Source: a virus (taxonomy: Duplodnaviria > Heunggongvirae > Uroviricota > Caudoviricetes). From it: 3,663 bases of DNA. Where the stretch lies: the IMG/VR virus record IMGVR_UViG_2877291059_000004. The stretch is one strand, 5' to 3'. Below are positions 2,411-3,038 of this stretch, in pieces (the first letter of the stretch is position 1; the number at the start of each line of letters is the position of its first letter). A program made the translations under genes and the position numbers. The notes below the pieces were generated by a model. The model had not been told where the DNA came from and searched no databases. It saw nothing but the letters and a program-made list of their open reading frames with translations.

Positions 2411-2740
2411 ATGAACTACACTATCGAATACTACAGTGAAGATGTAAGGCTGGAAGTCGATCGGCTTCCATTGAGTATGCGTGCCCGATACCAACATCTC
2501 GTTGAACGTATGAAGATATATGGCAGCAATCTCGGAGAACCTCACACCAGCGCCTTTGGTGACGGACTTTTCGAACTCAGAATTAAAGGCAACGATGGGA
2601 TCGCGCGTGTTTTTTACTGCACTCTGACAGGGAAACGCATCATCATGCTGCATAGTTTTGTAAAGAAAACGCAGAAAACACCGCCAGCCGAACGCAAGAA
2701 AGCTGAAACCAGAATGAAGGAGGTTAAGCATGACTGGTAA
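2411..2740 (+). CDS. Type II toxin, RelE/ParE superfamily (phage Gp49-like / HigB-like)
   Basis: Translation [109 protein letters not shown] (109 aa). It has the size and motif pattern (GEP...G.LFELR...R..Y.......I.L.H.F.KK) of Gp49-like RelE/ParE toxins and sits upstream of, and overlaps, an HTH gene. The start is uncertain: ATGs at 2330, 2351 and 2399 are in frame, and none has a Shine-Dalgarno sequence. Confidence 0.8.
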   Translation: MNYTIEYYSEDVRLEVDRLPLSMRARYQHLVERMKIYGSNLGEPHTSAFGDGLFELRIKGNDGIARVFYCTLTGKRIIMLHSFVKKTQKTPPAERKKAETRMKEVKHDW

Positions 2741-3038
2741 ACGCACTCTCCCCACCATGACACACGACGAAATGGCAGCCAAATGGATGGAAGACCCGGC
2801 TTTTAAAGCAGAATACGACGCTATCGCTGACGAATTCGCACTGCTTGATGAAATGCTGGCAGCACGCAAAGAAGCTGGCTTAACTCAGGCTGAAGTTGCC
2901 GAGCGAATGGGAACAAAAGCGACCGCGATCACCAGAATGGAAAGTAATCTCGCATCAGGTATCAGCGGCCCATCATTTGCCACCCTAAAAAAATTCGCCC
3001 GCGCTACTGGAAAAAAACTCCAGATCCGCTTCGTTTAA
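2730..3038 (+). CDS. XRE-family helix-turn-helix antitoxin (HigA-like DNA-binding partner of the Gp49-like toxin)
   Basis: AGGAGG at 2718-2723 lies 6 nt before the ATG at 2730, and the gene overlaps the toxin stop by 11 nt. The HTH motif is [22 protein letters not shown], with a C-terminal ...[17 protein letters not shown] typical of this antitoxin family. Confidence 0.85.

Follow-up and report, generated by a model that had tools for sequence, protein, structure and literature searches.

What is a pair of overlapping genes doing on the plus strand of a lambdoid prophage in which every gene around it reads the other way, and why has the prophage kept it? The question is raised by a 3,663-nt stretch of the IMG/VR virus record IMGVR_UViG_2877291059_000004 (hereafter the window, meaning this whole stretch), which forms part of a decayed, defective lambdoid prophage. 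Its only sizeable plus-strand genes are two open reading frames (ORFs), 2411-2740 and 2730-3038, whose flanking genes all lie on the minus strand. A first-pass annotation, made from the letters of the DNA alone, had described the pair as a toxin and its antitoxin brought into the prophage as a moron, antisense to every flanking gene and placed between ninE and the antirepressor genes, and the ORF coordinates and strands bear out this placement. Our analysis argues that the two genes very probably form a self-contained Gp49/HigB-HigA (Tad-Ata) type II toxin-antitoxin (TA) operon acquired by the prophage, most likely a selfish addiction module.

The toxin-antitoxin pair and its family

The two genes in question are:

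2411..2740, plus strand: toxin gene, 109 amino acids, Gp49/HigB-type with a RelE fold (profile, fold and homologue evidence)
2730..3038, plus strand: antitoxin gene, 102 amino acids, HigA/Ata type, with an N-terminal segment and a C-terminal XRE/HTH_3 domain

The toxin matches the Pfam Gp49 profile (PF05973) with E=7.4e-26 and 90.5 bits against a cut-off of 23.9, over profile positions 3-90 of 90, and it matches phrog_2523 over its full length (E=2.6e-45). Searching a protein collection with it returned 2875 relatives, all with PF05973 and mostly 107-111 amino acids long; NCBIfam gave only sub-threshold matches for toxin and antitoxin. Since most homologues, drawn from many genera, begin with the same N-terminus as the window toxin (MNYTIxYY), the toxin start is settled at ATG 2411, a point that the first-pass annotation had left ambiguous. 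Two in-frame ATGs upstream were considered and rejected. ATG 2330 (136 amino acids) lies in flanking isrK-promoter DNA outside the inserted cassette, ATG 2399 (113 amino acids; chosen by PGAP in some strains) falls inside the predicted -10 element described below, and the N-terminal extensions that they would add are not conserved among homologues.

An AlphaFold2 model of the toxin, built with 29 homologues, is confident (predicted local distance difference test, pLDDT, 91.4; predicted template modelling score, pTM, 0.85). Its topology is beta-alpha-alpha-beta4-alpha (E-H-H-E-E-E-E-H), and it ends, as Gp49-like toxins typically do, in a long C-terminal helix. Foldseek against the PDB placed at the top Streptococcus pneumoniae HigB (6AF3/6AF4) and Mycobacterium tuberculosis HigB1 (7AWK, and the ribosome-bound 7NBU), with template modelling (TM) scores of 0.75-0.77. 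Archaeal and bacterial RelE proteins came next (TM 0.52-0.56), whereas ParE structures scored far below both, with TM about 0.40-0.43 and E=0.017-0.18.

The relationship to M. tuberculosis HigB1 (Rv1955), the toxin of a toxin-antitoxin-chaperone (TAC) system, extends to the catalytic pocket. We took the pocket residues of this protein, HigB-TAC, from PMC9098466. In the profile alignment E66, R68, R77, F93, K95, Q98 and K99 correspond to E55, R57, R66, F83, K85, Q88 and K89 of the window toxin, and all of these except Q88 are invariant across 29 diverse toxin homologues. The two toxins share Pfam family, fold and long C-terminal helix (TM 0.76-0.77), and the conserved pocket supports the predicted cleavage of mRNA in the ribosomal A site. 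They differ in sequence (~25% identity) and in setting, the TAC locus having three genes with a SecB-like chaperone that is absent in the window; the HigB1 residues K58 and N73 are not kept. On this profile and model evidence, we regard the window toxin as a Gp49/HigB-type member of the RelE superfamily and a predicted ribosome-dependent mRNA endonuclease.

The antitoxin carries an HTH_3 domain at residues 44-98 (Pfam, E=3.4e-11). In the sequence search, the best PDB match of the toxin and that of the antitoxin are the two chains of one complex, S. pneumoniae HigB-HigA (6AF3/6AF4). That system is the best match of both window proteins in sequence as well as in structure, and its antitoxin has the same layout of N-terminal segment and C-terminal helix-turn-helix (HTH). 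It differs in that identity is about 20-22%, the genes are on a Gram-positive chromosome, and the toxin has 141 amino acids with an N-terminal extension as against 109 here. The domain searches, Gp49 for the first protein and HTH_3 for the second, together with the fold match to HigB and the match to the HigA chain, uphold what the first-pass annotation had said of both partners, namely a Gp49/HigB-like toxin from the RelE/ParE superfamily together with an XRE-type HTH antitoxin.

The pairing itself is conserved. The toxin comes first and its ORF overlaps that of the antitoxin by 11 nt (2730-2740), as had been noted. We examined 86 toxin loci, 6 of them from enterobacterial prophages and the other 80 chosen to represent species (Gamma-, Betaproteobacteria, Nitrospirota and others). 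An antitoxin homologue follows directly downstream on the same strand in 85 of them, and the one exception stops at a contig edge. Measured against the diverged enterobacterial copies L002, L006 and L007, the comparisons with unsaturated dS, both window genes have a dN/dS (nonsynonymous over synonymous substitution rate) of 0.02-0.16; judged by this ratio, both are under strong purifying selection. Proteins 100% identical to the two window proteins exist in RefSeq for Escherichia coli FDAARGOS_943, where PGAP names them 'type II toxin-antitoxin system RelE/ParE family toxin' and 'helix-turn-helix domain-containing protein'. On these grounds the pair belongs securely among the Gp49/HigB-HigA type II TA modules, an identity that databases already record.

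Promoter, operator and translation signals

We also looked at how the two cistrons are likely to be expressed. In ~80 loci, the 70 nt preceding the toxin start codon were lined up and then anchored on a shared motif. In the resulting consensus, TTG-N14-TAACAtATTTGTTAttAT, TTG reads as the -35 and TAttAT as the -10, and the 17-nt spacer between them contains the palindrome TAACA-N4-TGTTA. The corresponding elements of the window, with the other signals of the cassette, are:

2375..2380, plus strand: predicted TA promoter -35, TTGAAT; 52-61 of 74 loci have TTG in the corresponding place
2385..2400, plus strand: palindrome ATAACG-ATTT-TGTTAT, predicted antitoxin operator, in the spacer and overlapping the -10
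2398..2403, plus strand: predicted TA promoter -10, TATGTT, after a 17-nt spacer; ends 7 nt before the toxin ATG
2717..2723, plus strand: antitoxin Shine-Dalgarno (SD) sequence AAGGAGG, 6 nt before the antitoxin ATG, inside toxin codons K-E-V
3046..3066, plus strand: GC-rich hairpin GCGCCGTCA/TGGCGGCGC at the 3' end of the cassette; -18.5 kcal/mol, z=-2.75

The pattern TAAC-N6-GTTA occurs a single time in the window (2385-2400), with 0.02 occurrences expected by chance, and of 78 diverse loci, 74 have this palindrome in the corresponding position. A generic inverted-repeat finder (seed 6) returned nothing between 2300 and 2450; the operator surfaced solely through the cross-locus comparison. 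The -10 is equally constant across the family, with A at its second position in 74/74 loci and T at its sixth in 73/74, and it ends 6-7 nt before the toxin start codon in 68 of 75. No SD-like motif precedes the window ATG at 2411, and none was found before the toxin start in 80 of 82 loci. Since the -10 ends only 6-7 nt before a start codon that has no SD sequence, transcription is predicted to begin at the AUG or 1 nt before it, which would make the toxin cistron leaderless. The first-pass annotation had remarked on the missing SD sequence and raised a leaderless mRNA as a possibility; the comparative promoter geometry now strongly supports that prediction.

The antitoxin is preceded by a strong SD sequence, again as first described. 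An SD sequence, typically GAAGGAG, lies 6-7 nt before the antitoxin start in 76 of 78 loci, and the start overlaps the end of the toxin gene by 4-17 nt. This SD sequence is itself encoded by a near-invariant C-terminal motif of the toxin, (M/L)-K-E-(V/I)-K (window 2711-2729; 76/78 loci), and the invariance of toxin residues E104 and K106 may reflect a dual constraint, coding and regulatory.

Acquisition and likely role of the cassette

Comparison with prophages that lack the pair shows where it went in. The prophage of E. coli CFSAN018748 (L003) is collinear with the window and runs from ninB-ninE into the antirepressor genes with no TA genes between them. The window aligns with it over 588-2351 and 3082-3663, with ~5-21 bp between the two blocks in L003 (21 bp by BLAST), where the window has an insert of ~715 bp. 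The strict BLAST-defined insert is thus 2352-3081, and the core common to other contexts is 2348/2385-3066. In the TA-less phages (L003, and Gifsy-1 behind the Q gene), a few bases separate the stop of the upstream gene from a conserved GTCAA(C/T), which is the -35 (TTGAC, minus strand) of a minus-strand promoter. This -35 is kept in the window at 2360-2365 with extra DNA beyond it, and the cassette therefore spans 2367-3079 at most:

2367..3079, plus strand: inserted TA cassette, maximal extent ~713 bp, from the isrK-promoter -35 to the normal ninE stop
2365..2336, minus strand: antirepressor operon (isrK) promoter TTGACG-18-TATATT, from a promoter scan

The left junction cannot be fixed to one base, 2348-2366 being common to TA-less isrK promoters (Gifsy-1) and to the POCJ13 copy of the cassette. 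A LexA-like box seen here by eye, not by a formal scan (TTGT-N8-ACAG, 2356-2371), was dropped, since the POCJ13 copy, with a 4-nt insertion at this place, does not preserve it. At the right end of the insert, 'CCGGATAAAT' (3068-3077) repeats the isrK-promoter spacer of the TA-less L003 (3768-3777). 'CCGGATA' also stands beside the left BLAST junction (window 2345-2351), and the original copy of the -35 is missing on the right. The 'CCGGATAAAT' repeat looks like a recombination scar within the promoter spacer.

The cassette recurs elsewhere. In the early-right region of POCJ13 and 75/02 Stx, both Stx phages of Shigella, and in that of E. coli 2012C-4502, a copy of 2348-3066, ~92% identical, occupies other places, and homology to these other contexts stops exactly at the 3' hairpin (3066). 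More diverged copies are found in TUM9812 (87%, from position 2385) and in G1/2 (about 76-80%), and the cassette of E. coli FDAARGOS_943, one of the nearest complete genomes, is 99.9% identical to that of the window. The position differs from that of the window in POCJ13, L005, L006 and L007, and every copy, in several prophage contexts, is antisense to its neighbours. Among 5426 complete E. coli genomes the cassette is present in 31, every one chromosomal, and most of it is found in 5 of 50,697 phage records. GC content does not separate the cassette from its flanks and gives no signature of foreign origin. The case for a moron-like insertion is thus supported by presence/absence and mobility, with no support from composition. 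Absent from the collinear L003, against which its junctions are now delimited, and recurrent in other prophages, the segment is a supported candidate for what the first-pass annotation had called an acquired moron, a self-contained type II TA operon taken up by a lambdoid prophage.

Given these features, we propose the following mode of action. A sigma-70 promoter inside the cassette (TTGAAT-17-TATGTT) would start transcription at or within 1 nt of ATG 2411, a geometry seen in ~74/78 loci. The leaderless, SD-less toxin cistron would be translated poorly and the overlapping antitoxin cistron efficiently from its strong SD sequence, so that antitoxin would be in excess despite the toxin-first order. 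Antitoxin would bind to the toxin, and its dimer to the TAACA-N4-TGTTA palindrome on the -10, which would repress the operon; neutralisation and autoregulation are both suggested by the behaviour of the HigA/XRE family and by the conserved palindrome. Once antitoxin is no longer replenished, through prophage loss or a block of expression, free toxin would act in the ribosomal A site, cut mRNA and arrest growth, as the fold and the conserved HigB-TAC catalytic residues suggest. The net effect would most likely be selfish addiction, which maintains the module and the prophage around it, any anti-phage benefit being secondary. The prophage is decaying, with an IS1 insertion and the loss of the ninE stop, while the TA genes are intact, which fits an addiction or stabilisation role.

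Several points weigh against this proposal. Two HigB-TAC residues, K58 and N73, have no conserved counterpart (S47 and D62 in the window), and HigB2 and HigB3, two of the three Gp49-type HigB proteins of M. tuberculosis, are non-toxic upon expression (PMC9098466), so that membership of the Gp49 family is no guarantee of activity. The -10 (TATGTT) and the operator of the window are weaker than the family consensus, deviating from it by one base each, and a generic promoter scan listed the minus-strand isrK promoter and did not list the TA promoter. Of the family members, 23/79 start with GTG. As a leaderless start codon, GTG works poorly in E. coli, and some loci may have a very short leader instead of a leaderless mRNA. 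The 3' hairpin has no U-tract and is at best a weak terminator or 3'-end stabiliser, which leaves the cassette with no clear terminator. Gene gp49 of phage N15, the closest validated relative, has an ordinary leader with an AGGAGG SD sequence, and the leaderless design is therefore specific to the clade of the window toxin. Our literature searches found no toxicity, neutralisation, transcription-start or operator-binding experiments for this module, and the evidence does not tell stabilisation, defence and purely selfish persistence apart.

What else could the cassette be for? The same TA module might have been selected for anti-phage defence, by abortive infection or superinfection exclusion, rather than for prophage stabilisation. 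Its accessory position, its pR-independent transcription and its scattered occurrence in 31/5426 E. coli genomes and several prophage contexts make a pattern typical of defence cargo; RelE/ParE-fold domains do occur in defence proteins (PMC12065111; PMC11980606), and the toxin partially matches NsnC of the Menshen system (E=8e-10). That match, however, aligns toxin residues 49-99 (window 2555-2707) with the C-terminal 51 of 293 NsnC positions, NsnA and NsnB being absent. No PADLOC model recognises the pair as a system, the antitoxin gives generic HTH matches only, there are no defence genes among the neighbours, and the functional Stx phages 75/02 Stx and POCJ13 carry the cassette themselves. 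We therefore consider defence as the selected function unlikely, though plausible. As an observation on the other system, the partial match suggests that some NsnC variants bear a Gp49/RelE-like effector domain.

An improbable alternative ties the module to the antirepressor operon on its left, with its promoter, its antitoxin or mRNA cleavage modulating isrK/C4 control and prophage induction, so that it would not be an autonomous addiction module. The TA and isrK promoters are indeed divergent and back to back, with -35 hexamers 9 bp apart in the window and 4-9 bp apart across the window and L001, L004, L006 and L007. This adjacency recurs in cassette lineages of 80-87% identity with otherwise unrelated flanks (L006, L007), and at the edge of the cassette, 19 bp of the isrK promoter survive as a relic in the POCJ13-type copies (POCJ13, L005). 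Yet ~80 homologous modules in unrelated bacteria have the same promoter, operator and gene pair (the features that were compared), and the TA pairing itself is the conserved unit; the operator is ~20 bp from the isrK -35; and in mosaic phages, modules often have their boundaries at the edges of promoters. The adjacency may thus be recombination history at module edges alone, a functional link being possible but unsupported. As to the toxin, its PGAP name goes no further than 'RelE/ParE family toxin', and the non-toxic HigB2 and HigB3 belong to the same Pfam family (PMC9098466), so that it could in principle be a ParE-like gyrase poison or an inactive relic of the RelE fold with no mRNA endonuclease activity. 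The weak ParE fold matches (TM about 0.40, E>0.01) beside a TM of 0.76 to HigB, the family-wide invariance of the HigB-TAC catalytic residues and the strong purifying selection on the toxin make this highly improbable.

Among known systems, the nearest validated relative is the gp49-gp48 pair of phage N15, both partners of which are homologous to those of the window (toxin 46% identical, E=2e-26; antitoxin 38%, E=2e-15). N15 gp49 gave the Pfam Gp49 family its name, and N15 gp49-gp48 together with Tad-Ata of the Paracoccus plasmid pAMI2 are the founding PF05973 TA systems. Both share with the window module the toxin-first order, an XRE-HTH antitoxin and abutting or overlapping genes, and the N15 and window modules are both carried by a temperate phage. 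They have been described as stabilising TA systems (Dziewit 2007, as cited in PMC5906591), and all studied Gp49-domain modules are toxin-first operons (PMC5906591). N15 differs from the window in expression, its AGGAGG leader contrasting with the absent SD sequence and the -10 ending 7 nt before the ATG, and in lifestyle: the N15 prophage is a linear plasmid, so that the obvious role is segregational stabilisation, whereas the window belongs to an integrated, partly decayed lambdoid prophage.

More distant parallels share single traits. The HigBA module of an Acinetobacter baumannii plasmid and the Gp49/HTH_37 modules of Tn3-family elements are likewise carried by mobile elements and encode Gp49 toxins in operons of reverse order (PMC5906591, PMC7157771); they belong to other sub-clades with plasmid or transposon carriers, and literature searches found no report of a leaderless toxin for them. 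The paaR2-paaA2-parE2 locus of the E. coli O157:H7 cryptic prophage CP-933P is likewise a TA locus of the RelE/ParE superfamily carried by a lambdoid cryptic prophage, and the first cistron of the locus is leaderless by 5' RACE (PMC8630535). There, however, the leaderless gene is a cI-like regulator, the locus has three genes, the toxin is ParE-type and the antitoxin precedes it. HigBA of Proteus vulgaris Rts1 resembles the window module in its reversed order, HTH HigA antitoxin and operator palindromes overlapping the promoter (PMC12266136), while its toxin belongs to another Pfam family (PF05015-type HigB).

As a TA module, the window pair is of minor importance, identical proteins being in RefSeq and the Gp49/HigB-HigA family having been validated genetically, biochemically and structurally elsewhere. 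What the analysis adds is modest, namely the clade-wide layout of leaderless toxin, -10-fused operator and SD-coupled antitoxin, and the mapping of the cassette against the isrK/C4 module. It is possible, though we hold it as a doubtful generalisation, that in the MNYTIxYY clade, which spreads over Gamma- and Betaproteobacteria and Nitrospirota and includes the window prophage copy, the toxin is always a leaderless first cistron whose -10 is fused to the antitoxin operator and which is followed by an SD-driven overlapping antitoxin, as a hard-wired answer to the ratio problem of toxin-first operons. Leaderless mRNAs are translated by 70S initiation, with relative resistance to some stresses and inhibitors. 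If the generalisation held, the ratio of toxin to antitoxin synthesis could rise whenever canonical initiation is compromised, as in phage takeover or stress, and the toxin could be activated without antitoxin proteolysis; the recurrent back-to-back fusion with the isrK/C4 promoter might likewise tie the cassette to induction control. The layout could explain antitoxin excess in toxin-first operons, and the toxin gene would be a rare natural case of a leaderless gene, of which the list for E. coli is short. Leaderless TA genes have been described for M. tuberculosis, and our literature searches, whose incomplete coverage does not prove novelty, met no description of a leaderless Gp49/HigB toxin gene. 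The precisely mapped accessory hotspot of lambdoid and Stx prophages, where the TA cassette and an isrK/C4-controlled antirepressor module stand back to back, bears on how stable and how inducible prophages are among phages of the Shigella and Shiga toxin-producing E. coli type, such as 75/02 Stx and POCJ13.

The flanking genes and the RNA-controlled antirepressor operon

The nearest complete genome over 588-3271 is that of E. coli RMDEC465, at 96.7% identity. Around the cassette, the window and the related loci contain:

3253-3663, minus strand: NinB (Pfam NinB, E=2.5e-56)
3035-3256, minus strand: ninE, right neighbour of the cassette (Pfam NinE, E=1e-40)
1413-2276 as listed, real start ~2090, minus strand: ORF6N/P22AR-C antirepressor
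616-1344, minus strand: Rha/KilAC Ant protein
2329..2253, minus strand: isrK small RNA (Rfam 70.6 bits, gathering score 50)
2342..2290, minus strand: c4-a1b1, target sites of C4 (Rfam 45.3 bits, just below the gathering score)
2226..2142, minus strand: C4 antisense RNA (Rfam 75.9 bits against a gathering score of 45)
2360-2380 in the window, 5667-5825 in L001, 3402-3560 in L004, 3375-3527 in L006, 3401-3557 in L007: back-to-back adjacency of the TA and isrK promoters

The first-pass annotation had placed the cassette among genes of the nin region. On the right this holds, with ninE as the neighbour. The left side is not simply made of pR-driven nin genes: it is an antirepressor operon with its own promoter and an isrK/C4 leader. 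The isrK model begins, at its 5' end, where the +1 of that promoter is predicted (~2329), and judged by these RNA matches the region is a P1 immI-like or Gifsy-1 isrK-anrP-like leader of the antirepressor gene. The trio of isrK, c4-a1b1 and C4 is also present in the TA-less L003 and Gifsy-1 (L088), and where the cassette adjoins it in L001, L004, L006 and L007 the isrK 5' end lies 76-82 nt from the toxin ATG. The antirepressor itself starts at ~2090, because PHROG antirepressor profiles align only from residue 63 of the long ORF.

On the right, the normal ninE stop TGA (3082..3080, minus strand) reads TGG in the window, the plus-strand base at 3080 being C and not T; the stop is TGA in RMDEC465 and TAA in CFSAN018748. 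NinE thereby gains 15 residues, which run into the cassette hairpin, and the extended gene ends in a TAA that shares bases with the TAA of the antitoxin, so that the two convergent ORFs overlap by 4 nt.

The left end of the window (1-515) is a fragment of an IS1N-like transposase gene, ~97% identical to IS1N over 23-515, with an internal tandem duplication of ~142 bp (copies 25-152 and 168-293). Adjoining the fragment is a truncated ORF start (578..468, minus strand, MGDVKEKDIPGFEGIYKV...) that by eye resembles the N-terminus of a NUMOD4/HNH endonuclease. In related prophages the Ant gene is followed by DUF1364, rusA and Q, which the insertion sequence has replaced in the window.

Two further observations concern the RNA leaders. 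The 287-amino-acid ORF 1413-2276 spans the C4 and isrK RNAs, and its first ~88 residues (2091-2276, minus strand) weakly match Pfam Phage_ASH (E=0.0015) and PHROG 'transcriptional regulator' families (E~1e-8). RefSeq neighbours have an 'ash family protein' or a long 'Rha family' protein over the equivalent RNA region (in L006 at 2660-3661, overlapping the toxin start), and such ash/Rha families or annotations may in part be translations of conserved C4/isrK RNA genes. Additionally, in POCJ13-type phages the Rfam model sRNA-Xcc1 (79.6 bits) matches upstream of the ORF6N antirepressor, on the minus strand at 2030-2113 in L002 and 1527-1610 in L005; going by the Rfam match, this is a different RNA leader before a related antirepressor module.

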